64,000 nucleotides of DNA from Phoronis australis (lineage: Eukaryota > Animalia > Phoronida): positions 60,816-124,815 of the forward strand of contig NMRA01000211.1 of assembly GCA_002633005.1 (NCBI GenBank), in the 5' to 3' direction. The translations under genes and the position numbers were made by a program. The notes below the pieces were generated by a model. It saw only the letters and a list, made by a program, of their open reading frames with translations, searched no databases and was not told the origin of the DNA. This document shows positions 33,484 to 62,609 of the stretch, piece after piece; position 1 is the first letter of the stretch; each line of letters begins with the position of its first letter.

Positions 33484-34014
33484 ACAAATCGTACCGAGAG
33501 TGGCGTACATGAAGTAATATCCCACGAGACATTATTCCGCGTATCGACCGAGACCGAATTATCCCATGCGTTTCGAATTCCTAAGTTTCTTTCATTTTTC
33601 GACAGATTTTTAAATACTTTACTCAGACTGTTCACATGGCGATCACATCCTATGTGTATGTACTTGCGTGTTAGGTGACAAGTTTTCTCTTGTAAAAGAA
33701 GCAGTTTTAAAAGTAACGATTTATTTCTTGAAAAAAGGTAACAAAGATGAAAACAACGGCAACTGCCCAGTGAACTTGTAACATCTCCTGGAAATAGTTA
33801 AATAACAACAATAGTTGGTATTGTAATTTCCTAGGAATTGGAGGCTGAGTTGCAGACGTTGAAGTAGTGCGGGAGGAGAATACGGAAAACTTTAGTACAT
33901 GGCCGTATTTCGACATTATTCCGCGTACTGACCTCTACCTTCGGTCTCGGTCGATACGCGTAATAATGTCTCGTGGGATATTACTTCATGTACGCCACTC
34001 TCGGTACGTTTTGT
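33484..34014. mobile_element. MITE with ~75-bp TIRs (duplicate at 34827-35356)
   Basis: acaaatcgtaccgagagtggcgtacatgaagtaatatcccacgagacatta...gagaccgaa is matched in reverse complement at 33940-34014. Confidence 0.8.
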
Positions 34015-36029
34015 TAAAAGTGATGTTCTGTGTTGAATCCTGATCGCTGGCTACGCATGATACATTAGCTCGTATTCTCTTAAAATAATAAATTCTATTG
34101 ATCGATTTGAAAATGAATTTTTAATACACAAATAGTGAAAATACAAAATTTAAGAATATGTGAAGGAAGATAACCTGACAGGCCGAGTCACAAGCGCTTA
34201 TTATCAAAGTCGAATTTTTTTGTTTATCTTTAGCTTCTTTTGCCAGATCAAGACCAATCACCGCAATCACCGATTTGCACCTTTCAAATGATCCAAGCAT
34301 ATCAGTATTTCTACTTAGTTGGATGAAACCCTTCAAGAATTTAGTAGCTTTTAGGTTAGTAGGTGGCCGCCCTCTTGTTCACCCAGAAAAAAATTTAATG
34401 ATCATGGTCCCGGAATTCACCAATATCTGACGATAAATACACAATGATTTACACAGATAAAACCCAGAGAAATATAAAAACAATTCTGAAAAACTAGAAC
34501 AAAGTGTGTAAGAGTAAGCCATAGTGAAGAATCAATCATTATCGCACGTTATTCATTAAATCGTGACAGAAAACGACTCAAGAATTAAGCAATCTGGTTT
34601 CTGGGCACCTGATGGGCGATAACCTGATCACCCAAGGTGGGCGCCNTGTATGAAGAAATACGAAACATTGACTTTGAATAGGTTTCAATCTATTTGACAC
34701 GGAGTAGCCTACGTACTCTATACATCTAATACTGACGTCATTGAATAAATTGTCTCATTTGAATTCATCAGCATGAAAATTCGATACCCTCACTTTCTGA
34801 AGCTCTTACACTTACGCAATATTTTCACAAATCGTACCGAGAGTGGCGTACATGAAGTAATATCCCACGAGACATTAGTCCGCGTATCGACCGAGACCGA
34901 ATTATCCCATGCGTTTCGAATTCCTAAGTTTGTTTCATTTTTCGGCAGATTTTTAAATACTTTACTCAGACTGTTCACATGGCGATCACATCCTATATGT
35001 ATGTACTTGCGTGTTAGGTGACAAGTTTTCTCTTGTAAAAGAAGCAGTTTTAAAAGTAACGATTTATTTCTTGAAAAAGGTAACAAAGATGAAAACAACG
35101 ACAACTGCCCAGTGAACTTGTAACATCTCCTGGAAATAGTGAAATAACAACAATAGTTGGTATTGTAATTTCCTAGGAATTGGAGGCTGAGTTGCAGACG
35201 TTGAAGTAGTGCGGGAGGTGAATACGGAAAACTTTAGTAAATGGCCGTATTTCGACATTATTCCGCGTATTGACCTCTACCTTCGGTCTCGGTCGATACG
35301 CGTAATAATGTCTCGTGGGATATTACTTCATGTACGCCACTCTCGGTACGTTTTGTATATATATGTTCATGTTTATTTAAAAGTGATGTTCTGTGTTGAA
35401 TCCTGATAGCTGGCTACGCATGATACATCAGCTCGTATTCTCTTAAAATAATAAATTCTCATTGATCGATTTGAAAATGAATTTTTAATACACAAATAGT
35501 GAAAATACAAAATTTAAGAATATGTGAAGGAAGATAACCTGACAGGCCGAGTCACAAGCGCTTATTATCAAAGTCAAATTTTTTTGTTTATCTTTAGCTT
35601 CTTTTGCCAGATGAAGACCAATCACCGCAATCACCGATTTGCACCTTTCAAATGATCCAAGCATATCAGTATTTCTACTTAGTTGGATGAAACCCTTCAA
35701 GAATTTAGTAGCTTTTAGGTTAGTAGGTGGCCGCCCTCTTGTTCACCCAGAATAAAAATTCAATGATCATGGTCCCGGAATTCACCAATATCTGACGATA
35801 AATACACAATGATTTACACAGATAAAACCCAGAGAAATATAAAAACAATTCTGAAAAACTAGAACAAAGTGTGTAAGAGTAAGCCATAGTGAAGAATCAA
35901 TCGTTATCGCACGTTATTCATTGAATCGTGACAGAAAACGACTCAAGAATTAAGCAATCTGGTTTCTGGGCACCTGATGGGCGATAACCTGATCACCCAA
36001 GGTGGGCGCCGGGGGGGGGGTCGTTATCC

Positions 36030-36155: not shown

Positions 36156-36158
36156 CTA

Positions 36159-37378
36159 CGGTGGCCCGAAAGTATCATCGCTACTTCAGTTTATTAATTT
36201 TTTTATTTTTCCTTTTCCACCTAGGATGAAATATTTCAACCTAGGTGGAAATTATTTCAACCTAGGTGGAAATTATTTCAACCTAGGTGGAAATTATTTT
36301 CACCCGGGTGGAAATTATTTTCATGCTTGTACGTCGTTTGGTTAACGTGGCGTCATCTACTTGCGCTAGGAACAAGTCATGTGTCAAGCCATAGCTGCAC
36401 ACCCTTTTGTAGCACTCTAAAAACAATGCTCTTTGTTTTGTTTATTCATGTCAATCGGTTAGATCATTCTGCCACCACATGTTTGCAGACATATGTGTTA
36501 AAGTGTTAGCATGTACAGGACAATATGTGCAAGGAATTTCGCTTGACCTTGAATGGTTTCCTTTTTAGCAATTGATGTCGGCAATTATCAATTTGAGTCC
36601 CTTTAAGTTGTTTAGCTTCTGTCATCTGTTGCTAGTTGTGTAACTTTAAGTCTTTGAAACCTGTCAGCACGGGAAGGGTGAGGCTTTTGGACAACAACAA
36701 TAATATGTCATTTATTTATCGGAACTACACCATACACTATATTTGTTAATGGCTTGGGTTCGTTGCTGAAATCCGGCAACTTTATTCAGAGAGTTGTTTT
36801 GGAACTAGGAGTAAAACGTAATCACACTGTCTCTGTTAAAGTCCGCGGCAAATCCAAGAGGCAGATAAGGCGCCGACATTGCAACCTAATCTGAACTTTG
36901 TTGAACAAAATGGCTGGCCCAATCGACCTTCACCTACAAGACTTCATCCAATCACAACACAGATGAAAATAGGTGCCCGGATGTATAACATTTTCACCCA
37001 GGTGAAAATAATTTCCACCCGGGTGAACATAATTTCCACCTAGGTTGAAAAAGTTTCCACCCGGGTGAAAATAATTTCCACCTAGGTTGAAATAGTTTCC
37101 ACCCGGGTGAAAATAATTTCCACCCGGGTGAAAATAATTTCCACCTAGGTTGAAATAATTTCCACCCGGGTGAAAATAACTTCCACCTAGGTTGAAATAG
37201 TTTCCACCTAGGTTGAAATAGTTTCCACCCGGGTGAAAATAATTTCCACCTAAGTTGAAATATTTTCCACCCTGGTGAAAACAATTTCCACCTAGGTTGA
37301 AATATTTCATCCTAGGTGGAAAAGGAAAAATAAAAAAAATTAATAAACTAAAATAGCGATGATACTTTCGGGCCACTG
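36159..37378. mobile_element. Non-autonomous TIR element with sub-terminal 21-bp minisatellite
   Basis: TIR C(G/A)GTGGCCCGAAAGTATCATCGCTA extends >150 bp and is flanked by TA. The 21-mer aattatttcaacctaggtgga is repeated at 36231-36323 and inverted at 36965-37320. Confidence 0.8.
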
Positions 37379-37380
37379 TA

Positions 37381-37939
37381 GCTTTCACACCCTGCTGAAT
37401 AACCAAGTAACCTTTGTAAATACTTGTGTGGTTGATCAAGCTATTGCTTTCAGGTAACTTCTTGTTAAACTTTCGTGGGCACTGATTCTTTTGGTAGTGG
37501 ACGTTCCACTCTCCTATTTGTGTCTGTGCCGTAACCGTGATGGCTGTTCACTACATGTTTTGCACTGATTCATGCTGTTCTGTTTCGATTGTGCGCAGTA
37601 TACTACATATTATTTGACTTTAACTAAGTATTAAGATTGTTTTTGAGGGTTCAAGGTGATTTCTCATTTTTGTGATACTTTTCGTATTGAGTGCATGATT
37701 TAGTTTGCTTGCTGAAGTACGGTAACTTTTATGTTTGTTGTACTTTAAAGCCAGACTTTTATAGGCAGATCATAAGCTGTAAAAATCAATCAACTAAGGT
37801 AGTACATTAGACATTTATTTATAACATCAGAGTAAAAAATGATTTTCAAAATATATAATCTTGCCTTGGCCCTGCCTTGATCACTTGGATGCAGCAAAAC
37901 CTTCAGACGAGGGCACCCAAGCGTGACCCATATGTACTT
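37381..37939 (+). mobile_element. 3' remnant of a family-2-like Dada element
   Basis: Aligns with 61287-61450 and 61860-62028; ends in the sub-terminal motif CCCATATGTACTT fused directly to the next element's left end. Confidence 0.8.
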
Positions 37940-38333
37940 GCTGTTGCACAGCCAAATGACCGGCCAATCGTTGAGCCCTGTTAAGCAAGGCTTTTCCTCA
38001 ACAGACCAATCACAACGCTCTGTTGAGCACAGCTTTTCCTCAACAGGGCTCAACCATTGGCCGATCACATGACGTCAAGACTTAAAATGGCGGCTTCCTG
38101 TCACCAAGTCCTTGCTTCAAAACTTTGAAGTCGAATAGCGTCGAAAATACGTAAGTAAGGACGTCAATTTTTGTGCAGATGTGGGAAAACCAAGTGTAGA
38201 ACAAGTGTGTGAACTTTAACTTTAGTCGTTGCCGCCAGATTTTGAGTTATTTAACAAAGTTGTGCCTCTTCCGGTGAATTAGTTCATTGCCATGGATTGG
38301 ATACACCGGCTGACCGGCTTGGCCGTAAATTAA

Positions 38334-40168
38334 AGTCCTTCTTGCAAACTGCCCATGTGGTTCCAGTATCCGAAAATACTTACTACATAAATTCTTAATT
38401 TCGACACCCTTTCTTTAAATTCTTTTCGCCTTTCTTGCCAAAAGCGATTTTTTAACAGTATTTGACCCTTCTCTCTGAGCGTATGATTACCGGTTGTCAT
38501 CGGTTATTTCCGTACCCACATTTACGGCTCATCAGCTCAGGAACTTGTCCTGAACGCCACCATTTTTTTCTTGTAACTGAATGTGCTATGGCTTGCTCGA
38601 AAAGTCTTCATTATTTTGTTTTATTAGTAATATATCGTGATTCGTTTGCATATGTAGTGTATTTATAGTTTGTAGTTAGTGGTCGTTGATTTTTTTTGGA
38701 ATTTTACGCGTACTTAGTATGTTAAAATAGCATTGGTATTTAGTTCCTTACGTAGGCCGGTCGAACCTAGGAACCAATATGGGTCGAACCAATTTTTTTT
38801 CGGTTTTATTTTTTTCCTCGTTTTGAAAAAGTACTTTGCTATCATCGGAAAGGTTTAGTACATTCTACTCAGTAAAAATCGAAAAAAGTATCAAAATCGG
38901 GGCAAGCACTGTAAAGTTATTGCAAGTTTTGTGGCGAAATTTGGGTCACTTTGTTTGGATCGCGTCGGCCATATTGGAGGACAGCGGGATGAGTTACGAG
39001 TTTAAAACTTTGTGTAAATTGTTTTCGCCAACAAATTACGGTGAAATTTAGTTAGACATATCTTTACTTACTATTCTGCACGATTTAGCAGTGTTCACCA
39101 AATTTCAGCCTCGCAGTTGTTACTCATTAAGTGATAAATGTGCTCACAATTCCCGTTGGACTTCGTCTCATTTCTGGCGGCACCTACAATGTCGACTTTT
39201 GCTGAACTGAAAGGCATGTTCAATCGGCTACTTTGTAATTTGTGAAGATTTAACGTTGATACATTTTGACAAACGTTGCTACAAAAAAGAAACTTTGTTC
39301 AATTTTCGTGTTTTTTGTGTTTGTGGCCAGCGACCAGTTAGGCCTAAGGGTAGTCTTGGCGCAAAGCTGGCGTGCGTTCAGTAGACGCTAGGACCTACGC
39401 TAGGACCTTGCAAAATCCTAGTCAAAGTCACATGTTCTCATTTAAAATACACGGCAATATCTCACGTAATCTCGCGAAGTCTTGCTTCTTAGCGAGGTCC
39501 TAGCGCTACTGAACGGGAGGCTGTAAAGGCCTACTAACAAGCTGTATTTTGACTATAGTCTTCACTGGTAGCTGGTGACTGAGGCTAACTAAGGTCTGCC
39601 GCGGCAGTGTGACACAGGACTAACCAGCCCGTAATTTCATGCAAGTGTCTGAAACTACCCTTGAATATATGCAGCATTTATCATTTGACCATTTTACTTC
39701 GACAAAACAGCTTGCAACCGCATGCATTTACCGTTCGCCAGTGTCTGGTCTCGATCCGCACCGGGTCCGATAGGCTGCGGTCCCGAGTCTGGCAAAATAA
39801 TTTCTGTCAAAATTTATTCGCCACATTTCTTCAGCAAATTCCATAAAATTGTCCGTAGTTTGATTTTATCAAAATTAAGGCGGGCTGTCGATTTTTTTAT
39901 CCCCGTTTGCTGGCTGGTAACAGTACAGGCACTGCTCCAGTCGCACTGACGGCGTTTTCTCGGCCTGGGTTCCTGAATGAATTGTACTTCCTGGTTCGCG
40001 GCAAGTTCAAAATGGCGGTGTTTCTTTGGGTGCGAATCGTGAGTGGCGCGTTCATTTAAACTGTTTTCGAGTACGGATCGTGCATTAGCTATGGGGTAGG
40101 TACTTCTTGGATCCTTATAACATCTTCTAACCATGTAATAAAGGTTACCAACGCGTGAGAGAAGGACT
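38334..40168. mobile_element. Non-autonomous Kolobok-like element nested in the first intron of Dada copy A
   Basis: TTAA|AGTCCTTCT...AGAAGGACT|TTAA. The empty site (single TTAA, taaattaaaattgcaaat) is visible in copy B at ~49691-49708. Confidence 0.8.
39370..39520. mobile_element. 151-bp Harbinger-like MITE
   Basis: Imperfect TIR (CGTTCAGTAG/CTACTGAACG), CTG duplication; inverted sister copy at 41776-41926. Confidence 0.75.
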
Positions 40169-41775
40169 TTAAAATTGCAAATATTAGCGAAAGTACGCAA
40201 AGTTGGATTCCTTCATTTGAGTGATCGTGAGTGAGATGGGGTCAGCTAGGTTAACTGAGCGTAGTCAGTTTTGTCTTCATTTCCTCAAATTTGGTGAAAT
40301 TAGACGGTTTCCGCTCACTTCCGGTTTCAGTGCCGAATTGTCAAGACATTTTTGATAGGCCTACGAATTGAAAACTGTTTGTTATATGGTTTGATGTGCA
40401 CCTTATTTCAATTCACACAGGATACTCGTTCGTCGTGTTCCCGCGTGAAGTAAGTAATTCCTACTACATATATATTTGCAAGTTCCTTGATATACAACAC
40501 TATGGAATACAACTGACTAAAATAGTCTTGTTTATCAAGGATTGATCTCAGGCTTCATTTTCGGAGCGCTCCATGCGCTCAGGGCGCATTCAAAGATTTT
40601 TAATCTGCGAATTCAGTTTCCTTAGCAAGAAAGTGTAAATATTTTACTACAATTTTTACCCATTGTAGCTGTAATGGTCCATTTTTCCCACGGCGTGTGA
40701 TTTTGTAAAACGATCTTAGAGTTTTTAATACTTTCCCTGATTCTCGCTAATTATTATTTCCTAAACCGATTTTGAAAATTTCCCTTTTTCCGAATCTTAT
40801 GAACTGAATTTCATGGAAAAAACAAGGTTTCCAATTTCTGTGTTTTCTTTTAGTGTACATTTTTGTAAGACTTTTCTGAAAGATGTGTTTGATGATGTAG
40901 GAACGCTATTCCACACAGGACACCTTTTTCTCCAGGATCATCGCCTTCGGTCATACAGGTGGGCGTCGATTATTTTAACTTATTACGTACCACAACAAAT
41001 GATAATGCCTTACTGGGAATATACCCAACAGAGTATTTTTACCCATTCGAGTATTTCTGACATATTCTTGAAGGAAATTCAGTACAAGCGAAAAAAAAAC
41101 ACTCAGATCGGAGTGACGTCGAAGAGCCCTTCACCGCGACGGGCCTAAGGTCGGGCGACGCCGAGGCCAGGAAATGAAATTCAGAAATATTTTAATCTTA
41201 TGAATCAATTATAAGTATATATTCTACAGAATGTCACTTTTTTAATCAGCTTTTTACCGAGGACTCCCCGGTCCGGATGCACTCCACGGCAGTCAGGGGC
41301 ACGATCCTACTTAGCTAACGGGATTCCTCCCCGCAAGTAGAGAGAGAGAGAGACAGAGAGCGCGAGACAGAGGGTGACGGGTTTATTAACATAAGTAATA
41401 TTAGCTCATAATACAGTTTACAGAGTACAATAAAACAAACAAAAGCATGATCACAACCGGCAAAGTAGTAGGCCATATGTGCACAAGCCTACTGACCGGC
41501 GACTGATTTGAAGTAAATCTAATTACAATTCATTTACCAATGTCTAACATAACAATGGCAATTGACTAAAATCATTACATTATCACACACGTAGTGAATT
41601 TATATTTTTAGGCTTATATTACAACTGTGCTTTGCCGTTTTCGTTTGGGAAGAAATTTCACAGGGGAAGAAATTTCATGCCTTAGACGTGAAATAACTTC
41701 CCGTCAATACCGCGCATGCGCAAAAGGGTCAGAATGGGAAGAAATTTCACGGGGAAGAAATTTCACGCGACACCG

Positions 41776-41926
41776 CCTCCCGTTCAGTAACGTTAGGACC
41801 TAGCTTAAAAGCAAGACTTTGCGAGATTACGCGAGATATTGCCATGTATTTTAAATAAGAGCACGTGACCTTGACTAGATTTTGGCTAGGTTCTAGCGTA
41901 GGTCCTAGCGTCTACTGAACGCACGC
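41776..41926. mobile_element. 151-bp Harbinger-like MITE (inverted sister of 39370-39520)
   Basis: Reverse-complement similarity, same length, CCG duplication. It is part of a larger insertion (~40337-41926) absent from copy B. Confidence 0.75.
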
Positions 41927-42241
41927 CCGGCTGCGTCGACGGACGCTTTTTATGCAGTTTTAAACTAGCGAGATGTCGGCTAATTCTTTTTAAGACACTC
42001 GCTTATGGGTTGGCACCGATCCATCATTATGTCTGTGATCAAGCAACACCAACAGCACCAAAGTTGGATTCCCCAAAACACAAAATCCTTTCGTAAACGT
42101 TGGCACTGTTTACTCACTTATCAGCGATCAGCTGATTTCTGTTATGTACAATGTCGATGGTTTTTGTGTGTTACAATTATTTAAGTACTAAGTTGACGAG
42201 TTTTGTTAAAGTACAGTATCGTGCTATTGTTGCAGGTCAGG

Positions 42242-45200
42242 ATGTACAAATGTAATATCTGTGGCAGAAAGTTTGGTGTCAAGTCAACCTTGACTCGTCA
42301 TATGAAAATTCATGAAGACCCGAAAGGCTTCAAGTGCGACCAGTGCGCAAAGTCGTTCACTCTTATGCAAAACCTCGTGGAACACACAAAGTTTCACCAG
42401 CGTCCCAGTATACCGTTATACAAACCCGGTGAGGCACAGCTTTGTTGCAGTGAGGAAGCTAAAAGTGTGGCCAAACTTCCTAGCCAGCCCGTGGATGCAG
42501 TGTGGTTGACGCCGCAGACGGCTGAGGCCACTGCAAAAAAAGCGAACCATCCAGATCTCTGGAGAGAGGAAATTGTCTTAACATTTGGAAAGTACGCCGG
42601 CCAAACCTACAAGTGGCTTTTAGAGAACGACGTTGGCTGGGTTGTGTGGCTGTTGGATGCATTCTGTCATGACGGCGAGAAGAATGATTTTCTGAATTGG
42701 CAGAAAGACCAACTGTTGCAGTATGCCAAATCGTTTGAGGCTGTTGTCGTGCACCTTGAGAAACGACGACAGGTACACTTTGAAAATATGATCCTGTTGC
42801 ATTGAGATTCGAACAATTAAATAGTTGTAGTGTATTTTGCACCTGCGATGTTCTACATAAAGTCTAAACACAATAGAAGTCGTTGGAAAATATTATTGGT
42901 TTCGTAACACGTGAACATTAACTCTAAGATTAACAGTTTTCCAGTATTATTTTGTTTTAATCAGGAACAGTTTGTTATACGCGTGTACTTACTTTTGCAG
43001 AAACGCATCGCGGAGGAAACTAAGTCCACACTGGTTTCTGATTTCTCAGCAGATGATCCTGGATATGTGGCGAATGCTGAGTTGCTAGGTCATGCTGGTA
43101 AGCACAATAGGCATGTTGCGTAGACTGATGTGAATGTTGTCAAAGATACTTCATACTTATGTCTGTGTATGTTCTGACTATGACATCACCTTAAGACTGT
43201 TTTATCCGTAATTAGTTACTGTTTTTAGCCTATAACAGTGGTGCTGGCTCTGGCTCATAACTCAAAATGGATACACTGACTTATGCAAATATTTATTTTT
43301 CTGTTAAAGAGGAGACGCTCGAAAAGTCGGAGGTGTCTGTGTCGACACAGATGGCGAAACTCAAAGACATTTTGCCATCCACCTCATCTTCCCCCCAACC
43401 TGTCATTGCTCCTGAAGTTGAACTGTCAACGGACGAATCCCTTGTGATTGAAGGGTGGCAGAAGTCATGGGAAACGTTGCCGTCCAAAGATATGCCATCA
43501 GCACCAAACATGACGTGGTTTAAGACCAGTAGTTTGTATGGCGTATTCGGAGAAACGAAGTCGTACAAGAACGCCAAGGGTGAGGTGGTCCCCAGAAAGA
43601 CCTTTAAGAACCAGATTGACATTCACCCTCCACCTCTACCTACAGCAATCACGTCACATGTTCCTAACATGATGTTGTTTTTTACCACGTGTATTTTTCT
43701 GGCGGCCGGTGGGAGTGATGGAGGCGAAAGTGAAGTGCCCCAATAGTAACTGCCCAGCTCCACCCGAGAGCTTCCTCATCAAACACGGTTTTGGCAGTGC
43801 TGCTCGGCAGGTTTGTGGTATGCAAAATTACTACACTCTGTTGACAGAACGCCTCGTCTGCACCCACTGCAAGCAGATACGCCACGCCGCTGAGCATGAT
43901 AGTGAAAGTGAGGACCACGGATCTCCGCCGCAACAGTACAGGTGGCATGCACACAGCCCGAGAATACTCATGAACCTCGCCCCAGCTCTACGCAGCATGT
44001 TTCCAGCTATTCTGTGTGGAAGACGCTCAGTTGATAAGTATGTCGCCACACTTCTAGGTGATCGTCTTAACGCCATTTCCATGGCAAAGGTGCAGCGTCT
44101 TCTGCAACAGGGACACGACGAGTGGTACACAGAACGGAGGGACCTGTACCAGACACTCCTGTACCAAGCTCACGCTTCGTCGTCGTCATCGTCACAGTCA
44201 GGCATTCTATCATTCATCAAACCATCCGGCAGCTACACTCCCCCACTCCCTCAGACGCCACTGCCTTCTGCCCGTTTGCTGCGACGAGCTCACCTCCTCA
44301 TGGAGATGGAGAGGATTCCCTCGTACAGAGCTTCGATTCTGAGTGTGACGGGAGAGATTCTTTGCATAGATAGAACCAGACAAGTTAGCATATATGTCAA
44401 CTTAACTGACTCATTTGACTATAACGTAATGTTTTTCCTAATTGATAATCTTTGAACAATATTGGCAAGTATTTTTGGATTTCTTTTCGCATAGTTCTCT
44501 TTGATGGGGAGTTTTTGATATCTGTGTTGCGAACGTTATTTTGTTGTTGAAGTTTCAGATCCTAAAGAAAATCTACGGTGATGGGCAAGGAACGTTACAG
44601 TATGTCACCAGTGTTTTAAATGAGTGGGGGCAGTTCTTGACAACGGTTGTGGTGGCGTCGGAGTCGGAAGGGTCTTACAACCGTATGGCGCGCGGATTGA
44701 TTGCCCGTTTCAAACGAGCCAATGTATTGGCTCCCAAGGTGCTCTACGTGAACAATAACTGTTGCTGGTGAGTTCAGAACTGCTGGCCTCATTTTTTTAT
44801 AGAAACATATTCATATTGTTTTACAAAATGGGCTGTTAGTACATATTTATATCTTTGTATTTAGTGATGGTGGAACCTCGTGGTATGAAACTCTGTTCGA
44901 AGACTGGATCAAGGAGGGTATGGTTGTCCGGCTCGACATCCGCCACTGGCTCCATAGCTGGGATGGCGTAGTCATCAAGCAGAGCCACTCTAAATACGGC
45001 GTTTTTATAAGTGCGATGGCGGGGGCACTGCTAGCATACAACAAAGAGGACGTATTGCAGGTTGCCAGAGCAGTACGCCTGGGCAATGAAGACCTCTACT
45101 CGGGCTACAGCGACGACCAGATGTTGCCTTTTATCAAGCCTCATCAGCTCAAATCTTACGTGCGGCGAATAACGCGTGGAGTAGAAGTAAGTTAGCTGCA

Positions 45201-48200
45201 GTAAACTTGCCACATTAGAATCACGGTATTGTTTTTACTGCTCAATGGGTGCAGTGTTTTTTAAGTAATGCTAAAGTGAGTTGTTCGTATGTTGTTAAAT
45301 CTTGCAGGAGACAGCATGTGAAATCGAACGAATCCTCGATGAGTTCAAGGGACCCGCGGGCTTGGACGTGGATGGGATACCCCTGTTCAAGTCCCTTGAG
45401 GCGGTCGAGTGCCGCTGGACAACAGCTAGCAAGCACTTGAGCTGCATGCAGGTGGGTATCCTTTGAGTGCATAGTCTATTCGGCTATCCAGTACCCCATG
45501 CTTATTGTATAGCCATCTGTTCTCTCAAAACTATCCACTCTGTGATGATGCTGGTTTAATCTTGTTTGTAACTTTTCTAACTGCCCTCCAGGATCCACAA
45601 GGAATCCAACTGTATGTGTGTACAAAAGTGGTGACAGTTAACGGTGTTGAGCTGAAGAAGTATAGATGTCGAAGGGGCACCAATTCACTGGAGGGTCTCC
45701 ATTCCCACTTGTACAACGCTGTGCCATTGCAACGATGCGGCATTACACCGTTCCAGGTAACCACACCTGTCTGGCTATCGGACGTGTTAATAGAGAAAGA
45801 TTTCTCCTTTTATCGTAATCTATTTTGCCCAGGGTACGCCACGAGCTATGTTGCAGAGTAAAACAAGAGGAGGATTGCGAATATTGTCATTTATTATGAC
45901 GTAATAGATAAAACTAACTAAGACTCTGCAAGATGGGCATGCAAAAAACGCCCACAGGCGTGTACAATGAATAGCCCTGCAAGAGGGAACAAAACAAAAA
46001 AACTGCCTGAAGGGCTTAAAGGAAAAGTACAGAACATGAAAACAAAACTTGAAAAAAAAAAAACCTAAGGAAATGTATACGAGCAAAGAGAAAGTGGAAC
46101 CGACACCCGGGATGGGGGGTGGGGAAAAAATGAAGAGAACGAACGTAGGTCTTGTAGATGACGAGGTAGGTGGCTGAATGAGAGACCACGTTGAACAGAA
46201 CAAAGGAAATATGGGCGTCCAATCAGGAGTTGAGTAGAGAAACGTATGAATACAAAAGTAGGCCCTAGAGGCTATAAATAGAGATGAGTAATGCAAAATA
46301 AACCCTAAGGACTGGTCTCAAAATAAAGAGACAAGTGTCAAAATAATGACGATAAATGCATTTAACAAGTTAAATTTAATTTATCGTAATCTATTTTGCC
46401 CAGCCCTTAAAACTTTCCCTTGTGCGCTACATGCAATATCTCAGTAGGACATCTTATGTAGAATAAGTGCGTGGTTAACGTTGTTCTTTGTAGCTGTACA
46501 TTGAAGAATTTCAATTTGTTGGAAAAACATATCCTTCTATGTTGCCGTGTGTTTCAGGTGTACCTCATTGCGTTCGTGGTACAGTGGAACCAGCGAATGG
46601 AGTCGCTTCGTGTAGCTGGAGGTCGGGGCCGACTGACGTCGTGCCTTGATCCAAGGCTCATCCAACGGCTCAACCACCACTCTGAGGTGCTCTTTGGGAA
46701 GAGCCACCTCTTTGAGCCGAACTTCGCCGCCCCATGCCGTACCCACAGCAGTACACCGACCCAGAAGAGGAGGAACTCTTGGGCGTAGAATACGCATACT
46801 GTCAGTCTACCGACTTCAAATCCAAGGAGTATTATGTCGAGAAGGGTAAGGAGACCTGTGCTGCATAGCTGAATTTGCCACTGAATACTTTCCGATAGAA
46901 ATTAGCTATGCCAATTAGTGATAGCACTGCTTTGTAACAACGCGCTCTTTACGGTATATCGTAAGAATACTTTAATTGCCATTTCAGTGGACGAAGAGCA
47001 ATCGCATCAAGAGCCAGACGAGAGCGAGTCAGAAGACGAGGGCGTAGAGGTTGAAGAGGCGGTGGTTGACGATGACCCCATTGATCACGTGAGCTCCAAT
47101 GCTGCACTCACGACTTCAGAAATGGTCACTGCAGAGGAAAGTCCCGCACTCCAGGATGTTCTAATGTCTGTTCGACGCCTCCATCTTCCCGGCTTTGAAG
47201 AAGTTGAGGCATTGGCACTTGCACTGTTACAACTAGTAGACGGTGGTGATACGCACATGATAGCTCCCGATCTGCGGAACAGAATTCGCGTCGCTGCGTC
47301 CTCGATTCACGACCACGACAAGAGCGCGCGGAACTTCACCAAGAAGTACGAGTCCAAGTGGGGCTACACGCTATTTGGAAGATGTCTGGGGCCGGAGTCT
47401 GCGGAGAACAATGCGGCTCAGAAGACCAAATTCGGTTGGATGCGATATGCCCAGGCAGCACAGATCTCAGAAGACTCGCGACTCCTGTATCTGGTTGTCA
47501 AGATGTTGAAGAACCGACCTGCTAATCAACATTCGTCCCCAACAAAGATTGCCAATGCCATAAGAGGAGGTTACAAGAGAATTGTCGACCGTGTAAGGGA
47601 TGACCCGGTACTTTGCTCCGTTGACATTCCACTGCCTAACATCAACTCCAAGTCTATCACAGTATTTCTGAGCAAGCTGGAAAAGAAGGCGAATTACATG
47701 GCTACAGCTCAGCCAAAAGTGGTTCCTCACAGAAAGGTTTTTTCCAGTCAGGCCATGCCAGATGCGCCTAGCCTCCCGACTTCACTACCACTGCCAGATC
47801 GACCAGAGGTTCAGTATGTAGCGTTGGAGCACAGTTCTGGTAAAAGACATCTGGCCAAGGAGAGAGTTGACGTCGACGAACCAAAGCCCGTGCGTGTCAG
47901 ATCTGGGTCAGCTGCAGTGGCTTCGTCTGCTCCAGTTCTGGTCGTAGTTCCTGCTCAGCCACTGGCACCTTCTGTAAAATTAGAGCAGCCCTCAACGAGC
48001 CAGGGGTATTCTCGGTTTGTGTTGACTGCACCTCCGCCACTGCTTCCCACGAAACCGGTTATGCCTAGCAAGTCCGATAAACCCTGCGCTGCCTGCAAGC
48101 AACCAAAGTGTGGTGGGTTACGTAAGCGATACACGCCCTCAAAGGACAAGACGTCGGGCAGTCGGCAGAAAATATTCACTTTCTGTCCCACCACTGGGAG

Positions 48201-48297
48201 GTCGACTACACCAGGCTTTGATGAAGTCTACGACAGCTTCCAGAGTTTCAAGGAGTGTGTGGATGCGGAGCTCCTGAAAAGAAAGAATGCATGTTGA
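42242..48297 (+). pseudogene. Dada transposase pseudogene (2 N-terminal C2H2 fingers, DDE core), 9 coding exons
   Basis: Exons 42242-42772, 43001-43097, 43310-44383, 44559-44767, 44865-45186, 45308-45451, 45592-45756, 46558-46845, 46988-48297. Motifs TFGKYAGQTYKWLLENDVGW, LCIDRT, LYVNNNCC, RLDIRHW, RCRRGTNSLEGLH. Frameshifts at ~43690 and ~46731 relative to the paralogue. Confidence 0.88.
45833..46379. mobile_element. ~550-bp insertion with 24-bp flanking direct repeat
   Basis: TTTATCGTAATCTATTTTGCCCAG at 45809-45832 and 46380-46403, inside a transposase intron. Confidence 0.65.
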
Positions 48298-48866
48298 TAG
48301 GTTTATCCTAAGTCCGATTGTATGTACATCAACAATTGCAGCTCAGTAACTTTGACTTGACTATTTTTTGGTGTAGTTGAGGCTGTTTCAAAGGGTATTA
48401 TTATCAATAGCTAAAACTGGCGATTTAAGAGCATCTTTGTTTATTTTTAGTTCACAACGGAAATGATTTGCTGCATGCTGGGTAAGTTCATATGTTGTGT
48501 GTACCTGTGTGCCTAATGCTACTTAAGCCTCGTACTCTTGAAGCTTTGCCTTTCTCCATGCTTTTATAACATTCCATGTCATACTCAGGGTGTGGTCTTT
48601 CCTTGTTGCTTTCCTGTAACTTCTGTCATTGCTATTGTTTAACCAAACTTGCTTTATTAGTCTCTTGGTTGTTGTCCCTATTGCTTATGTATGGCCTGCA
48701 CATTGTTAGAAGTGACTTCTGCTTAGCAGTGCATTTTTGTATTTTTTCAAATATATAGTCTAACGATTCTGTGCCTTGTCCTGTATGTGTTTTCGACTAT
48801 TTTTCTGTTTGTAATGTGCATTATGTCTGTTAGCCTTATACCTTTGAACTGTGTGTGTTGTAAATA

Positions 48867-48979
48867 AAGACTGAGATAACACAGTCGTATTGAACTATTA
48901 TGTTCACTTTTTAAAAATGGCACAACGTGATGTTATGGATCGAATCCTGGTGACTGACCGTGCCTGTTATCTCGGTTTT
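48867..48979 (+). ncRNA. Putative pseudoknotted structured RNA motif of Dada 3' end (family 1 copy A)
   Basis: Closing helix 48867-48881/48965-48979, hairpin TGAAC/GTTCA, GGCAC/GTGCC four-way junction and CAGTC:GACTG pseudoknot; covaries with 61648-61757. AATAAA at 48863-48868. Confidence 0.7.
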
Positions 48980-49319
48980 CAGTTTGTTCACTAATTACAT
49001 CATATTTTTGAAATGGAAACAATTATTTGCTCAACTTATTTTGAAATGTGGAATGTCGAGTGTAATAAAAGTGTAATAAAAAGTGAGATAATGCAAAAAA
49101 CAGCCTTAAACTGAAGCGAGTGTGAGGTTAGATGGCCAACGTCTACTTTTGCTACAAAAATCCCCGTTTTTTGGTGTTTTTTTGGACTTTTTTGCCCTTT
49201 TCTGCGATCACTGAAGTCAGCGCTCCCTCAGGGGATCGGGGAAACTAGTATAACCACCCCCAGGGGTCGTTGCCCATTCCCAGGCTGTTGCACAGCCAAG
49301 TGGTTATACCGCGCTCGAC

Positions 49320-49526
49320 CGGCCAATGGTTGAGGCCCGTTGAGCGCGGCTTCTTCCTCAACGGACCAATCAGAACGCTCTGTTGAGCGGAGTTGATCGG
49401 TGGCCTTCCTCAACGGGGCTCAACCATTGGCCGATCGCGTGACGTCAAGACTCAAAATGGCGGCTTCCTGTCACCGAGTTCTCGCTTCAAAAGTTTGAAG
49501 TCGAATAGCGTCGAAAATACGTAAGT
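49320..49526 (+). promoter_or_regulatory. Putative Pol II promoter and non-coding first exon of the Dada transposase (homologues 37960-38157, 54560-54700)
   Basis: CCAAT, CCAAT, ATTGG and TGACGTCA occur in the same order and similar spacing in both families; family 1 adds AAAATGGCGG and a donor ac|gtaagt. Confidence 0.6.
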
Positions 49527-54202: not shown

Positions 54203-54439
54203 AAAAAAATATTATACACTTAAGAAAAAACTACAAATGAATTTTCAGAAATTGTGAGGTAAGACCTCCCCAAGGTCAAATATAACACATTTTTCATCAG
54301 AAGTATGTTTTTTGGCTTCTTTTTGGCTTCTTTCTGCCTACTTTTCTCTTGCCTTGGGGCTGATCACCCTGATCACCATTTTGCGCCCTCTGTCGTGATC
54401 CCCGGGAGTTACTGTTTCTACTTAGGTGGGTCATGACCC
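54203..54439 (+). mobile_element. Right-end remnant of a third Dada-like family
   Basis: Ends TTTCTACTTAGGTGGGTCATGACCC immediately before ATTCCC of the 5S fragment, in the same register as the other right ends. Confidence 0.6.
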
Positions 54440-54512
54440 ATTCCCAGGCGGTCACCCATCCAAGTACTAACCGGGCCCGACGTTGCTTAACTTCGGTGAT
54501 CGGACGAGAACC
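54440..54512 (-). rRNA. 5S: 5S rRNA gene fragment (~nt 30-102), interrupted at GGGAAT
   Basis: Minus strand GGTTCTCGTCCGATCACCGAAGTTAAGCAACGTCGGGCCCGGTTAGTACTTGGATGGGTGACCGCCTGGGAAT is the canonical invertebrate 5S sequence; truncated, so non-functional. Confidence 0.95.
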
Positions 54513-55466
54513 AGTATTCCCAGGCGCTCACCCATCCAAGTACATAACCGGGCCCTGACCAGCCAATCGCTGAGCCCTGTTAAGCACGGCATTTCCTTAA
54601 CAGGCCAATCAAAATGCTCTGTTAAGCAAAGGCCTTGCTTAACAGCGCTTAACCATTGGCTCCTTCAGCTGACGTCAAAATCCAATATGTCTGCCTCTTT
54701 CGATCTAGTCTCCGCTTCGAATGTTTGCCGTCAAATTACATCTAAAATACGTCTTTTTCAACAGTAATACTTAGCCAAGATTGTCAGTACCACATGAAGA
54801 ACAGGTTGGTAATCTCTGATTTTATTCTTTTGTCGTAGATTTAGAATAATCTGTAAGAATGTGTTACTTCCGGTAATTCTTGGGCGTCGCCATGGATACC
54901 GCTGCTGACCGAATTGCCGGTTGAATAAAATTGCAAAATTCTCCAAAAATACGCCAAGATCGAATGTTTCACTTGAATCGAAATGACATGCGGACAGTTA
55001 GGAATGGTCTGTGATGTACGATTCGTCTTTATTTTCCCAACTTCATTTAAATTGAACCGTTTTTCTCTTCACTTCCGGTCGAAATGCCGGCTCTCGGAAA
55101 ATACCCAATTTACCCAATATTAAACGCTCCAGTTCTCGGCGAATTGGTTTCAAAAACATTGATTAGGGGCTTGAACCTATGCATTGGTGTGTCTGTGATC
55201 AGGAACACACCTCATCCGCATATTTATTACCCCAAATGACGCCAGTTTTTTTCGTAAACATTGTCACTGTTCACCTAGCTGTCGGCGATCAGCTGATTCC
55301 TGTTAGAGGTCAAACTCCAATGGTTTGAAGACGTTTCAGCTGTTTATCTACTCGTGCACCCAACCCATGCACATGCAACCCATGCGCTTAAGCACTGATT
55401 GTTTGCTCAGGCCCACATTAAGTGTACTTTTGCCTCTTCCTAAAATGGTGTCAATTTTTTTTAGTC

Positions 55467-58400
55467 ATGTACAAGTGCGCCACATGTGGGAAATCATTTT
55501 CCCAGAAAGGCCATCTTCGAGAGCATGAGAAAATTCATACTTATCCGAGACTGCAGTTGTACAAACCTGGAGTGGCTAAACTGCAGTGCACAGATGCCGC
55601 AAAAGCGATTAAAGCGAGGACGAGCGTAACGTCTGTCGATGTGAAGTGGTTAGAGGAGAGGTCTGCCATCGACGCCGCCAAGGCCATAGCTGGAGAGCAA
55701 TGGTTGTCTGCCGTCATCATGACCTTTGGACAGTATCGAGGTCAGTCGTTCCAGTGGTTACTAGAAAACGACGTTGGATATGTTGTTTTCATGCTGGGAG
55801 AGTACTTCCTGAAGGGGGACCGAAACGAGTGCACCAGGTGGGTCAAGGATCTCCTGAACCAGTACGCAAGCCAGTTTGCTTCAGTGGCATGTCATCTGGA
55901 AAAAAAGGTAAGTTTCTGTAATGTAGCTACAAATTAATCGCTGATGTTTTGCCAAATTGGATAGGAACAACAACGTTGTGAACGTCCGTATTTGAGTATG
56001 GTACTGAGTGATGAAGGAACGACTGTCGTGTCAAGTAATCTTAAAATCGACACATACAACCATGAGTCTTAAGACTATTTACCATCGATTAATCAATTAC
56101 CAATACTTCTGTTTAGAAACAACTGAAGAAAGCGCCACCTACTTCGACGATCAGCAGGCCCCCTCCCGACGAGTTCTCAGAAGAGCACATCCAAGACAGT
56201 GAGCTCTTGTCACTGGCAGGTATGATGTAACCTATCGTCATCTTGGAAGCTAGTTGTCAACTTCGTTTTGAATGTGGGTTAATTAATTCCCTAATGTTCG
56301 TATTTGTAACATCGATATGGATATCATTAGCTTTTTACATTCACGTTAGCGATTACGGTAGGTTTGTATGAGTATGCTGCTGCACTTCCTTAACTGAGCA
56401 CGGGCTGTTTTGTGACCAAGATATGATAACCTCTTGTGATAAAAAACTAATACAACAAATCCTAATATTGCTCAATTCTTGAGTGTTAAACTCTGCATGT
56501 GATGCCGTTATTTTTTCTCCTTAGAAAACATACTGGAACAGTCAGAAGCACCTGTCGCTACATGTATTACCAGTGTGCCAGCTCCTGAAGACACAGACAA
56601 AGTGCCAACTACTCCCATCCCCGAAGTGACCAGCTCTGTTACATTGGAAGGTTGGCAGAAGCAGTGGGAGGATGCGGCTTCCCCAGCACGAAACAACGTC
56701 AGGTGGATGAAGGAGAGTGAAGAATACGGCTTGTTCGGTCCGCCTAAAGCATACAAAAACGCTAAAGGGGAAACATTGTTTCGCAGAACCTTCAAAGACA
56801 AGATGTGGTTTCACCCCCCTCCCATCCCGACATCCATCAAGTCGTCCATTCCTAACATGCTGGGCTTCTTCACGACACCAGTCTTCCTGTGGAGACCTGT
56901 AGGACTATTGGAAGCCAGGGTGAAATGTCCCAATCGTACCTGTCCTGCGCCTCCAGACACTTATCTTGTAAAGCGGGGATACGGATCATTTCCGAGGCTA
57001 GTTTGCGGGACACACTCCAACTACATCTTGTTGTCAGAGCGACTGTTCTGCAGCTTTTGCTATGACCTTCGTGGCCAGCATGAGGAGTCAAGTGATGAGG
57101 AGGGAGAAGCCTCGTCAGGTACAAAGCAGCAGCAGTACAGCTGGCACTCGCACAGTTCTGCAATCCTGATGACCCTCGCCCCTGCCATTCGGAACCTCTT
57201 ACCAGCCATTGTATGCAGCAAGAGAGCTGTTGACAAGGATGTCGTGACCATGCTGAGTGACAGGATCAATGCAGTTTCAATGACGAAAGTACAAAGGTAC
57301 AGTGTGACGAGTAATGATAACATAGACACCCGTGATAGAAATGACAGTATTTAAAGAATGTTGTAATTATTCTACACACACTTAACTTGTTCAGTAATTA
57401 ATGTGCTAATTAATGTTTTACATGTTTCCATTTCGAACGGAAAAGCTTTAACCTTTGATAGCGTGATAGAATTGTTTGTTCCCTTGTACTCAGAACTATG
57501 AACATGTGTGGTATAACTTTGTCTCTAACTTACGAGCGAATCATATGTTCGTCCAGGTTGCTGAAGCGAGGCCACGACGAGTGGTACATTCAAAGAAGAG
57601 ACCTCTACCAGACGCTTCTTTATACCGCACACAGGTCGAAAGAGGGGATCTTGCAATACATCAGGCCAGCAGGATTTTATACGCCTCCTCTGCCACAAGC
57701 TCCTCTGCCGGGTCCACGCTTCCTACGACGGGCTCACCTGTTGATGGAAATGGAGTTAATACCCGCCTACAGAGCATCTATCACCAGCGTCACTGGCGAA
57801 ATTCTCTGCATTGACGGGACTAAGCGAGTACGTTTCTTTTCAGCAAAATGGATCACCACTTGTGGCACTTTTAGTAATTACTGATGCTGTTATCAGTTTT
57901 TTGTTCGTACACACCTTTTACTCAATTATATGACCACTTCATGTTAATTGCAGGTGCTCAAGAAAATTCGTGGTGACGGGCAAGGTACGATGCAGTACGT
58001 AACGACCGTGCTGAACGAGCTGGGCCAAATTTTGACGACCGTGGTAGTGGCCTCAGAGTCGGAAGACTGCTATGCCAGGATGGCCAAGGGTCTAGTTGCA
58101 CGTTACAAGCGGGCCAATGCGACTAGTCCAAAAGTGCTCTACACTGACAACAACTGCTGCAGGTGGCTTCTAGAATGCATTTTAATCTATAATCCTTGTT
58201 ATTTTTTAAGTTTACGTGGCATGTGCCTGATAATAAGCTGCATTTCTTAATTAATGTGAACTCGTACATTTACAGTGACAAAGGGTCTTCATTTCTGGCC
58301 AGACTGTTTTCGGAGTGGGTGGATGAAGGGATGGCTATTCGTCTTGACGTTAGGCACTGGCTTCACAGATGGGACGCTGTCATCATAAAACAAACTCATG

Positions 58401-61081
58401 CCAAGTACGGCTCATTTATGAGTGCTCTCGCTGGGGCTGTGCTCGCCTATAACAAAGACGACATGGTGGAGTTGATTAGGGCTGTTCGCAACGGCAACAA
58501 AGACCTCTCAGAACTCAGCGACTCTGAAGTCATGAGCCATTTGAAACCCTATCAGCTGAAGTCTTACGTTCGTCGTATCACACGTGGTGTAGAGGTTAGT
58601 GCTTAAGAATATGAAATCGAGTCAAGTAATTTATAATTTTAATGTCTTTTGCGAAACATGACCATTGAAGACCAGTTTTAACAATGCTAGAAATTGTTAT
58701 AGGAAACGGCAGGGGAAATCGAGGCGATTCTGGAGGAGTTTAAGGGTCCTGCTGGGCTTGACATCGACGGCATCCATCTGTTTAAGTCGAGCGAGGCAGT
58801 GGATTACCACTGGATGACTGCTTCCAAACATCTTGGATGCATGCAGGTAACATTTTGCGCAAATGTTTCATGTGGAACTGCTCTTTCAAAGAATGATCTA
58901 TGCACGTGTGGGCTATGTCTGCATTTACACACTTTAGCTCCATCCGCTTAATTGAATGAATTTGTTTTCTCTCGCTTCAGGATCCACATGGCATTCATCT
59001 GTACGTGACGACCAAAGTAGTCTCCGTCAATGGTACTCGGCTCAACAAGTACAGATGTCGCCGTGGCAGTAATTCCCTGGAGGGATTACACGCCCACCTC
59101 TACAATGCCATCCCCTCTAAGCTGTGTGGTGTTCAGCCGTTCCAGGTTAATGCGTCATTGGTTTTGCTATTACAATATAATTGTCAGTATGATTCAAACC
59201 TAAATGCGCAAGGTATCTTTGCATACAGTATCTACTGGTTTTTTATATAATAGGTCCACTGATGTACCTCTCCTACATTTCAGGTTTATCTCTTGTCTTT
59301 CGCCGTTCAGTGGAACAGCAGGATGGCAGAGCAGGCTGTAGCTGGAGGTCGGGGCAGTGGTACGTCGTGCGTAGATCCACGTCAGGTTCAGCGGGTAAAC
59401 CAGCAGGCTGAGGTTCTTTTTGGGAGGGAGCATGTCCTCGAGCCCAACTTCTACGCACCCATGCCCATTCCGCAGAAGTACGATGATCCGTCAGAGGAGG
59501 AGCTGCTCGGCATCGAGTATGCGTACTGTCAAGCCAGTGACTTCAGTGCCACTCACTTCTACATAGAAAAGGGTTAGTCGTGTTGCATCATTCCTTGACT
59601 GTGCAACATTCGTCAATTTTAACTGCTTGAGTACGTTGTGTTTATTTATTGGCTACTGAATTGGAAATAACATTAAGTTGATACAGTGGTAGTCGACTGC
59701 ATTGTTAAAGACAGAACTTGTAGCAATACTCAGTCGTATATACAAAATACTTTCATAATATTACGAGCAATATTTTACAGCCGAAGAAGAGCAGTCGCGT
59801 GAGGAAGAGGAGGACGAGGAGGGTGACGAAGCGGACAGCTCAGAAGATGAGGGCATCGAGACTGAGGACGGCGATGAAAAAGACCCAATCGATGCCATGA
59901 ACCAGTCGCACGCTTCACTTTCCTCTGCCGAAATGGTGACTGAGGTGTCGAGCCCGGCACTTGAGGATGTCATGATGACGCATCGCCACTTGCATCTGCC
60001 CGGCCTTGAGGAAGTCGAGTCTTTGGCCACGCTCCTGGTGTCCTTAGCGTCTGATGACGGCAAGCTGTTAGTACCCGCGGATGTGAGGTCGAAGATCTGT
60101 GACGCAGCTAGTCACTTACATGATCATGACCGGTCAGGCAGGAACTTCGTAAAAAGATACGAGTCCAAGTGGGGATACACACTGTTCGGACGGTGTCATG
60201 GTCCAGAGTCTGCAGAGACCAGTGCGGCACAAAAAACGAAGTTTGGGTGGATGCGGTACGCTCAGGCCGCCACAATAACCGAAGAGTCACGACTGCTGTT
60301 TGTGGTGATCAAGCTACTGAAACACAGTCCTGCGTGCCAGATGTCGTCCCCAAGGAAAGTGGCCAATGTGATTGTACACAAGTACGGCAGAATATGCGAT
60401 CGCATCCGTGACGATCCAGCGATCAGTCGTCTCAGACTTCCGCTGCCGAAAATAAACGCCAAGTGCGTCACTACATTTATATGTAAGGAAGAGAAGCGGG
60501 CAAACTTCGAGGCTACAGTCCGCCCAAAGGTTACTCCTCACACCAGAGTTGTGTCCGATCAGGTGATGCCTCCAGCACCTAGTCTGCCGGATTCAATGCC
60601 ACCACCGAATCGCCCTCAGATACAGTATCCAGTCCTGGAATACAAGACTGGCAAGCGACACTTGCAGAAGGACAGGCTGGAGTTGGACGAGCCAAAGGCC
60701 AAAGGCAAGGCTCCCGAACCCCAAATTCTTGTTGTAGTGCCGTCACAGCCGCAATCCTCCTCTGTTCGAGTTGTTCAAGGTCCAAGCGGCCCGTCGTTTG
60801 CCTTACTGCCACCTCCCCCAACTATTATGTCACGGCCGGTACTACCAAATAAGTCAAACAAGCCATGTGCAGCTTGCAATTTGCCCAGATGTGGTGGTAA
60901 GAGGAAACGCTACACTCCGTCGAAAGACAAGGTTGCAGGAAGCCAACAGAAGATATTCACCTTTTGTCCCGTAACTGGTCGATCACTAACCTCAGGATTC
61001 CCTGGAGTTTTCGAGTCATATGAAGAATTCAAGGCCCGGGTCGACGAGGAACTTAAGAAAAGGAGCGATTCCCTTTCGTGA
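55467..61081 (+). CDS. Dada-type DDE transposase with N-terminal C2H2 finger, 1337 aa, 10 coding exons
   Basis: Exons 55467-55907, 56117-56219, 56525-57296, 57557-57827, 57954-58162, 58276-58594, 58703-58846, 58981-59145, 59284-59572, 59781-61081. All GT-AG, 4014 nt, no stop or frameshift found by hand. Motifs CATC..H..IH, TFGQYRGQSFQWLLENDVGY, LCIDGTK, LYTDNNCC, RLDVRHW (DxxH), RCRRGSNSLEGLH, C-terminal CAAC-x4-C..FCP. Confidence 0.9.
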
Positions 61082-61647
61082 TCTTAGAGTAGTCTACTGT
61101 ATATTGTATTGTGGAAAGATGTCATACTCGTAGTTGTTTTTTATAACATATGCATGTTTGTTTTTTAGATTGATTGGCTGCTAAAGGAAATTTTCTGTGG
61201 TAAGTTCAGGTGTTGTGTGAATCTCTCCCTGTTTGCTCCATGTCAAACTTCTAGGCACTATGCTTAAAACTCCTAACTGCCACGGGCTTTTCACACTCTG
61301 CTGAATAACCAAGTAACCTTTGTTAATACTTGTGTGGTTGATCAAGCTATTGCTTTGAGATAACATCTTGTTAAACTTTCGTGTGCACTGATTCTTTTGG
61401 TGGTGGATTTTCTGCTCTGCTAATTTGTGTCTGTGTTGTAACCGTGTTGAATCTGTTGTGACAGTGTATATTTGTTTCGTCACATTTCTTATAACCAATA
61501 AGTCTCGCTAAAAACTGCTACATTTCACTGAATGTTTGTATTTCTAACGCTTATTTGTAACGTTGCTTTATCCCTTATAAGTTTGCTACTGCTTTTTCTG
61601 TTTGTAATGTACATAATGTCTGCCTGCACTGTGTTGTTTGTAAATAA

Positions 61648-61757
61648 AAGCTGAGGTAACACAGCTATATTGAACGATTATGTTCACTCTTTAGAAAGGC
61701 ACAACGTGATGTTATGGATCGAATCCTGGCGGCTGGCCGTGCCTGTTACTTCAGCTT
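61648..61757 (+). ncRNA. Structured 3' motif, family 2 version
   Basis: Same helices as 48867-48979 with compensatory changes; AATAAA at 61643-61648. Confidence 0.7.
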
Positions 61758-62044
61758 GAATTCTTTTTTAAATAATTGCTTTTCCTCTTCAATCATGAGA
61801 AACAAATATATCTCATACCTTGTTCATGTGTATTTATCTTAAATAAATTAATGGAAAGGCTGTAAAAATCAACCAACTTTAATAATTTAGTGCATTACAC
61901 AATATATTTGTAATAATATGGTAAAGAAAGATTGTCAACATCAAGCACCTTGGCTTGGGCCTGCTTTGGTCATCTAGAAGCAGCGCCATCTTCTGGCGCG
62001 TGCTTTCAAGCATGACCCATATGTACTTCCAGGGGCACCTGCCC

Positions 62045-62118
62045 GTTCCCAGGCGGTCACCCATCCAAGTACTAACCGGGCCCGACGTTGCTTAACTTCG
62101 GTGATCGGACGAGAACCG
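62045..62118 (-). rRNA. 5S: 5S rRNA gene fragment (~nt 29-102) forming the right flank of the intact Dada
   Basis: Identical to 54441-54512 over the shared length. Confidence 0.95.
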
Positions 62119-62609
62119 AAACTTGGCTCATAAGTTTCGTGAAACCATATTTGTGCACATCTGGGTATGAGTCACACCACCAGCAAAAATTTTTGGTGGA
62201 CCATCTGATTACACACACCTTTTTGCGGCATACGAAACAGTGTGGTGTGTATACAGGGGTTTAGACAACTACCAAACATTGAAGACTATAAGGAGCACCC
62301 ACGGGGCGTAAAAAATTGAATATCAGATTATCGCAACAGCCTCAAGCTGTTTAAGAATGAAGACCTGTACTGTTACTCCGGAAATAAACATGTTCTGTCT
62401 CGTTACGAGAAAAACTGGCGAACGACGGTGCTCTCAGCTCCTAGTCTATTACTAAAAGCAACAACAAACAATTAAGTATCACTTTATTAAGGTGAATCAC
62501 GTTGACAACAATTGAAAAACGTCAAATGTATCAGGAAACAAATCATCTGAAAACAGTTTCACGAAACTAAAACACTCTGTAGGCCTACACCGTGGTGAAA
62601 AGATACACA

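Follow-up and report, generated by a model that had tools for sequence, protein, structure and literature searches.

A Dada-5S transposon of Phoronis australis carries at its left end a near-perfect copy of its 5S rRNA target

It is an unsolved problem how a Dada transposase locates a single site within RNA genes that are present in many copies, and Dada transposons have been proposed as tools for targeted gene delivery. According to the text of the Dada-5S paper by Kojima (PMC8869645), these elements insert at ATTCCCAGGCGGTC in 5S rRNA genes, the targets of Dada lineages resemble one another mainly downstream of the site, and Dada-tY and Dada-tA often carry their own hexamer to the insertion. 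For Dada-U6 and Dada-U1, a motif common to ends and target, at an equal distance from the duplication, was proposed in 2013 in a paper whose text also records tandems of Dada-U1 at one hexamer (PMC3706591). We analysed 64,000 nt of the Phoronis australis contig NMRA01000211.1 (positions 60,816 to 124,815; hereafter, the window). The locus described here is a 7.5-kb DNA transposon of the known Dada-5S group, inserted in a 5S gene.

Rfam detected two partial 5S rRNA genes in the window, both on the minus strand (54425-54535 and 62026-62144). Between them lies the element, which we call family 2 (Table 1); its insertion point is the published Dada-5S site, and its right end occupies 62020-62044. 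As in other Dada elements, the target-site duplication is short (6-7 bp in the group; here ATTCCC and GTTCCC, with one mismatch), the length lies between 4.7 and 11 kb and the gene contains introns (7,523 bp, at least nine coding exons), and terminal inverted repeats are absent, short sub-terminal inverted repeats being placed equidistantly from the ends and sharing their motif with the target. A duplication of 10-11 bp was rejected, since no more than 7-8 bp are common to the herring-type and L001 ends, and an off-target copy retains GGCG. The 76-bp 5S remnant upstream of the element is joined at a short microhomology at which 5S +27-31 equals +103-107 (window 54440-54521), and both remnants (54440-54521 and 62051-62118) are broken at +29/+30. 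The other 3' and 5' parts of the split 5S genes were not found within the window. Elsewhere in the window we observed an element with long inverted arms of 21-bp tandem repeats, sitting inside a Dada relic (36156-37381); a 1.35-kb direct duplication of 96.7% identity whose halves meet at a single N at 34646 and which may be an assembly overlap (33308-36010); an exon of a glycosyltransferase of family 43 (18989-19543); and an open reading frame with a weak match to reverse transcriptase (9588-10580).

The family-2 reading frame looks intact in all nine exon stretches that were tested. By alignment to relatives, we placed the DDE triad, and the DxxH that follows the second D in Dada transposases, at CIDGT, YTDNNCC, RLDVRH and SNSLEG. 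The N-terminal CCCC zinc finger of the group is present (CPNRTC ... CSFC), and a C-terminal CxxC-x4-C ... C cluster matches that of the related proteins P0004 and P0007, with no His at the published CCHC place. The protein is 62% identical over 448 residues to that of L011, a metagenome locus with a herring-type element, and 41% identical to the distant zebrafish protein P0010. In a tree with one outgroup and no named Dada-U1 protein, it is 61-66% identical to the herring-type L011 and L005 proteins and to fish proteins, and is grouped weakly (82/81) with a crinoid protein. Searches of solved structures with the transposase sequence returned zinc fingers or nothing. We also considered a structure predicted, at pLDDT 81.8, for P0005, a fish relative whose core shares 66% identity with that of family 2; the best fold match of this structure was ISCth4, of the IS256 family, a weak one (E 1.6e-4, TM 0.34-0.40, rmsd 17-21), and two of 282 structural matches had an E up to 0.001. 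The N terminus holds one C2H2 finger in family 2 (55470-55540) and two in family 1, a second Dada-5S family of the window (42233-42400), as well as in P0004 and P0007; P0010 has none. From their sequence, these fingers are possible candidates for the part of the transposase that reads the target.

Table 1. Coordinates in the window of the Dada-5S elements, their ends and the associated 5S sequences
Feature	Position	Strand	Remarks
Family-2 Dada-5S element	54522..62044	+	7,523 bp; ends, hexamers, homology to herring-type Dada-5S locus L011
Left target-site hexamer ATTCCC	54516..54521	+	Published Dada-5S site
Right target-site hexamer GTTCCC	62045..62050	+	One mismatch relative to left hexamer
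Displaced 5S arm, truncated	62051..62118	-	5S +96 to +29; Rfam RF00001
76-bp 5S remnant	54440..54515	-	Hexamer, +96 to +30, microhomology join to 3' part of 5S gene
Imperfect palindrome with CCAAT repeats	54561..54661	.	Conserved behind Dada-5S left ends
Family-2 left end, resembling antisense 5S (+96 to +61) over 38 nt	54522..54559	+	35/36 identical, two 1-nt insertions; second copy in reads; sister family L003/L006
Left arm of 9-bp sub-terminal inverted repeat AAGTACATA	54538..54546	+	+17 to +25; includes extra A
Right arm of 9-bp inverted repeat AAGTACATA	62020..62028	-	+17 to +25 from right end
Intron-containing transposase gene	55470..61081	+	C2H2 finger, DUF6729, DDE triad, DxxH; stop-free in 9/9 exon stretches tested
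Family-1 tandem junction	49248..49319	+	Right end, ATTCCC (49276-49281), left end 27/36 5S; 10-bp inverted repeat at +19 to +28
Decayed family-1 element	37940..49275	+	Nested insertions; second catalytic D changed to N
Third Dada-5S family, right-end fragment	54204..54439	+	Left boundary approximate; ACTT at 54420-54423

A sequence-only reading of the window had proposed that the left end of family 2 equals the displaced 5S sequence except for one substitution and two 1-nt insertions. This description holds: relative to the displaced 5S arm (62051-62086, with an identical copy at 54446), the left end matches at 35/36 positions and differs by a G>C change at 54527, an extra A at 54544 and an extra T at 54556. 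The interval first given, 54514-54558, begins 8 nt too early and omits the last base of the true extent, 54522-54559. The family-1 left end (49282-49301) had been noted to keep AGGC and CCAAGT in register, as it does, and proved closer to 5S than claimed, matching at 15/20 positions without gaps and 27/36 with gaps. Among 127,960 positions of the window, four match the 5S arm at 15 or more of 20 bases, namely the two 5S arms and the left ends of family 1 and family 2. The stretch 54419-54439, first described simply as the right end, does match sense 5S at 14/21 positions (binomial p 7e-5 at a fixed site), but belongs to the right end of a third family and not to that of family 2. For this third-family end, which is close to the herring right end, we found a second copy, 87% identical and reaching the hexamer, in run X3. 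The 5S arm holds the first six of the nine bases of the family-2 inverted repeat, at the same distance as in the element. The sub-terminal inverted repeats measure 9 bp in family 2, 10 bp in family 1 and 13 bp in the L003 element.

We asked whether this stretch belongs to the transposon or arose locally, by duplication or conversion, from the 5S remnant beside it. A local origin would fit a locus that is rearranged, with a 76-bp 5S remnant directly upstream, and a junction (54516-54632) that is known from the assembly and not spanned by read contigs exactly there. Against it stands a second family-2 copy with a non-5S flank. Runs X1 and X4, which come from a single sample that may be the source of the window, hold it as a 99-nt contig, and X6, from a different study and sample, holds it in six RNA reads; run X5, uninformative here, had no reads over the left end. 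This copy covers 54520-54555 without a gap and with two mismatches, one of them at +1 (counted from the element end), and on its inner side continues into the family-1 coding sequence of position 44867. Two further X6 reads, by elimination the two at 90-95% identity, span about 54537-54690. A 142-nt contig was also seen that is family-2-like and then family-1-like; with the copy just described, it shows that ends are shuffled between families (X1, X4 and X6 on 54520-54555 and 54633-54689). The sequence-only reading had held that other copies lacking the 5S-like 37 nt would make the stretch local; the mimic is kept both in the second copy and in the sister-family loci L003 and L006 described below. 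As for whether it is fixed among independent family-2 copies, the second copy has the mimic and lacks the extra T at 54556.

We scanned metagenome contigs with a pattern that fixed A at +1 and AAGT and left +2 to +16 free, so that the hits are uninformative on these five fixed positions and ends without them are missed. Of 12 matches (L001-L012), ten are Dada-5S left ends, in five families; eight of the ten follow the 3' part of a 5S gene, one follows a right end and one has another flank. The remaining two, L009 and L010, lack a 5S flank, CCAAT repeats and a transposase match, and were set aside as chance hits to serve as controls. The first 60 nt of the element at L011 are the published herring Dada-5S left end. 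L003 and L006, from a sister family in another host, match at 31/36 positions, with the window's own 5S rather than their hosts' as the reference, as for all 5S identities of these loci; they share with family 2 the C at +6 and the extra base after +22, and one is flanked by 5S while the other is a tandem junction. Rfam found no 5S gene in L001-L012. The exact 27-nt mimic had no match in the metagenome contigs, the left-end pattern none in prokaryote genomes or viral contigs, and 'cccatccaagt' none in the 2022 Dada data set. In the published fish elements, compared by eye with the sequences given in the source, AAGT stands at the same offset in four of six left ends (two look truncated) and four of six right ends, with AATT in a fifth, and the goldfish and rohu ends start with (A)GGCGC. 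Three side observations concern these loci: L005 carries, near 4059, a doubled hexamer ATTCCCATTCCC before its herring-type left end, resembling an excision footprint; L004 (2232-2291) belongs to the family of L007 and L012 (98.7%), with a non-5S flank, the hexamer kept and differences at +2 to +5; and L007 (1102-1146) and L012 (1372-1416) each contain an internal 45-nt 5S-like stretch of 80% identity, perhaps a 5S-derived repeat.

The extra A lies inside the 9-bp inverted repeat and is thus mirrored in the right end, and homology runs without a seam into the family-1 and fish left ends. Together with the non-5S-flanked second copy and the sister family in another host, these sequence comparisons indicate that the 38-nt mimic is part of the element and travels with it. 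A local duplication is thereby largely refuted, and we regard it as extremely improbable.

At the 15 positions that the pattern left free, the seven left-end families agree with 5S at 14, 13, 10, 9, 8, 8 and 6 positions (68/105), and four right ends at 34/60; random sites of the window give 3.5/15 by chance. The corresponding figures are 4 and 2 for the control hits L009 and L010, and 4/15 for L004, which is a variant within the weakest left-end family. C at +10 is present in all seven left ends and all four right ends. Together with AAGT at +17 to +20, it is common to nearly all ends and to the 5S target, the family-1 right ends at 49275 and 54202 having GGGT instead of AAGT. These counts support the proposal of a single motif, at constant spacing, common to the ends and the target. 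Family 1 and family 2 are only 61% identical in protein and agree at 84 of 272 fourfold sites, so that silent sites are saturated; hence the likeness is not a neutral leftover, and by this comparison neutral retention is excluded. Since likeness varies from 6 to 14 of 15 among families, most of the mimic appears dispensable for the others. On these scores the mimic is graded across families, with family 2 as the extreme.

We consider it probable, at roughly 0.7, that the mimic travels with the element and resembles 5S because the transposase uses one binding mode for the left end, the right end and the target arm. The enzyme would bind a motif centred on +10 and +17 to +22 in both ends and in the 5S target, and would cut or join at a fixed 16 bp from it; the 5S arm would be captured as if it were a left end. 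The greater 5S likeness of left than of right ends (68/105 versus 34/60) may arise because the left end likely occupies the protein site that the target uses, and selection on that site could have kept the family-2 extreme of 35/36, which recombination with the numerous copies of 5S may have helped to refresh. Such a scheme would work without TFIIIA.

The length of the mimic invites a different account, in which only the core of C at +10 and AAGT is functional and an element-borne mimic has in family 2 been extended by 5S sequence that was occasionally captured or acquired by gene conversion. At +9, family 2 agrees with the 5S of this host in having A, whereas L003 and the fish ends have T; ends have been swapped between families, as in the deleted copy that joins a family-2 end to family-1 coding sequence; and the depth of 5S contigs is about 240 times that of unique contigs. 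However, family 2 and, in another host, L003/L006 retain both the C at +6 and the extra base after +22, which plain conversion should erase. We regard this account as possible, yet clearly less probable than a single binding mode.

The sequence-only reading had further suggested that TFIIIA, whose C-box region the mimic covers, could help to bring end and target together; the factor would then bind the mimic as it does the 5S gene. The internal control region of 5S comprises box A (+50 to +64), an intermediate element (+67 to +72) and box C (+80 to +97). We take the hexamer to be 5S +97 to +102 in Xenopus numbering (the Rfam model being one higher), so that the mimic spans +61 to +96 and covers the intermediate element and box C. 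The change at +6 shared by family 2 and L003 is 5S position +91, and G91 of the 5S coding strand is presumably a TFIIIA contact. The true 5S arm conforms to the box C consensus given in the text of PMC3369914, and none of the seven left-end families does: five deviate from it at four to seven positions, family 2 and L003 at +91 only, and with a single consensus position broken, fingers 1-3 might still bind. The invariant AAGT, however, falls at +80 to +77, the edge of box C; box A is absent, since the mimic stops at +61; an extra nucleotide between +75 and +74 displaces the intermediate element by one position; the right ends match box C poorly; and U1, U6 and tRNA genes serve as targets for other Dada lineages, U1 genes for the sister lineage. 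Nothing in the family-2 sequence suggests selection for TFIIIA binding; assistance by this factor is not supported and seems very unlikely.

It had also been proposed that each insertion leaves a new target-like junction. In sequence this is so, the hexamer and mimic at the left junction being 35/36 like the target, and it is conceivable that each insertion thereby regenerates a working target, into which later elements enter to form head-to-tail arrays. Right end-hexamer-left end junctions were found at 49276, where a deleted family-1 unit begins (49282) upstream of family 2, in L003, and in contigs whose depth exceeds that of unique DNA 20- to 28-fold; two such contigs have depths of 149 and 93 against about 5 for unique DNA, which measures depth and not copy number. 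However, the right junction retains the true 5S arm, and insertion there yields the same tandem; the deepest tandem is that of family 1, which has the weaker mimic; and unequal crossing-over could also amplify tandems. Since the right junction explains the tandems equally well, we entertain re-targeting of the left junction only tentatively. Two observations concern the arrays themselves. The depth of the family-1 junction (49235-49320, runs X1-X4) hints at a long array, perhaps collapsed in assembly, and the stretch 37383-37960 records an old mixed tandem, in which the relic of a family-2-like right end runs directly into a family-1 left end, the hexamer and the bases beside it having been deleted.

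Circle-type and chromosomal tandem junctions look alike in these data. A more speculative scheme, which we think rather unlikely, is that Dada-5S, a eukaryotic DDE transposon, integrates like a site-specific recombinase: it would leave as a right end-hexamer-left end circle and exchange strands across the hexamer with a 5S gene that is read as a surrogate left end. The weak ISCth4 fold match, the recipient-end chemistry of IS256 and IS911 and the own hexamers of Dada-tY and Dada-tA leave this scheme open. If it were true, target specificity would be written in the element's own left end; it would account for the mimic, for carried or mismatched hexamers, for one-ended events and for head-to-tail arrays, and one would then expect joint re-programming of end and target to be feasible. 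In the text of the papers searched, neither a long mimic nor a Dada circle was reported. Whichever scheme applies, the locus combines a transposon that looks intact with a defined shared motif (C at +10, AAGT at +17 to +20) and a natural series of ends from weak to near-perfect mimics, and so makes the question of target finding directly testable.

We compared the locus with the systems nearest to it. In the bacterial elements ISCth4 (IS256 family) and IS911, which use copy-out/paste-in transposition, one end attacks 6-8 bp beyond a second, 'recipient' end, at a point whose distance from a sub-terminal site is constant, and in IS911 it is this distance that matters and not the bases between, as the text of PMC7780238 describes; unlike Dada, these elements have true terminal inverted repeats and no strict target. 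The published Dada-5S elements (Dada-5S_ClH, _LaRo, _NoCe and -A_CaAu; Kojima 2022) agree with family 2 in site, orientation, AAGT offset, CCAAT repeats and a homologous transposase, and the herring right end contains the same AAGTACATA, as far as the source text and its sequences go (PMC8869645). The elements reported there come from ray-finned fish only, whereas the present one is from Phoronis australis; of 16 positions, the fish left ends have about 10-11 in common with 5S and family 2 has 15, and in family 2 the match continues to 36 nt. The main text of that paper does not discuss ends versus target for Dada-5S, and in the text of the two Dada papers we did not find a near-perfect 36-nt mimic (PMC8869645, PMC3706591). 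Dada-U6 and Dada-U1 (Kojima and Jurka 2013) follow the same shared-motif principle, so that the surprise is limited, the principle being already in print for other Dada lineages; their shared motif, as the text gives it, is 7-9 bp long and lies in other target genes (PMC3706591), whereas here the copy extends over 36 nt. What is new is the near-perfect 36-nt copy and its persistence across hosts. Judged from these alignments, the mimic is real, is borne by the element and represents a new extreme of a known Dada property.
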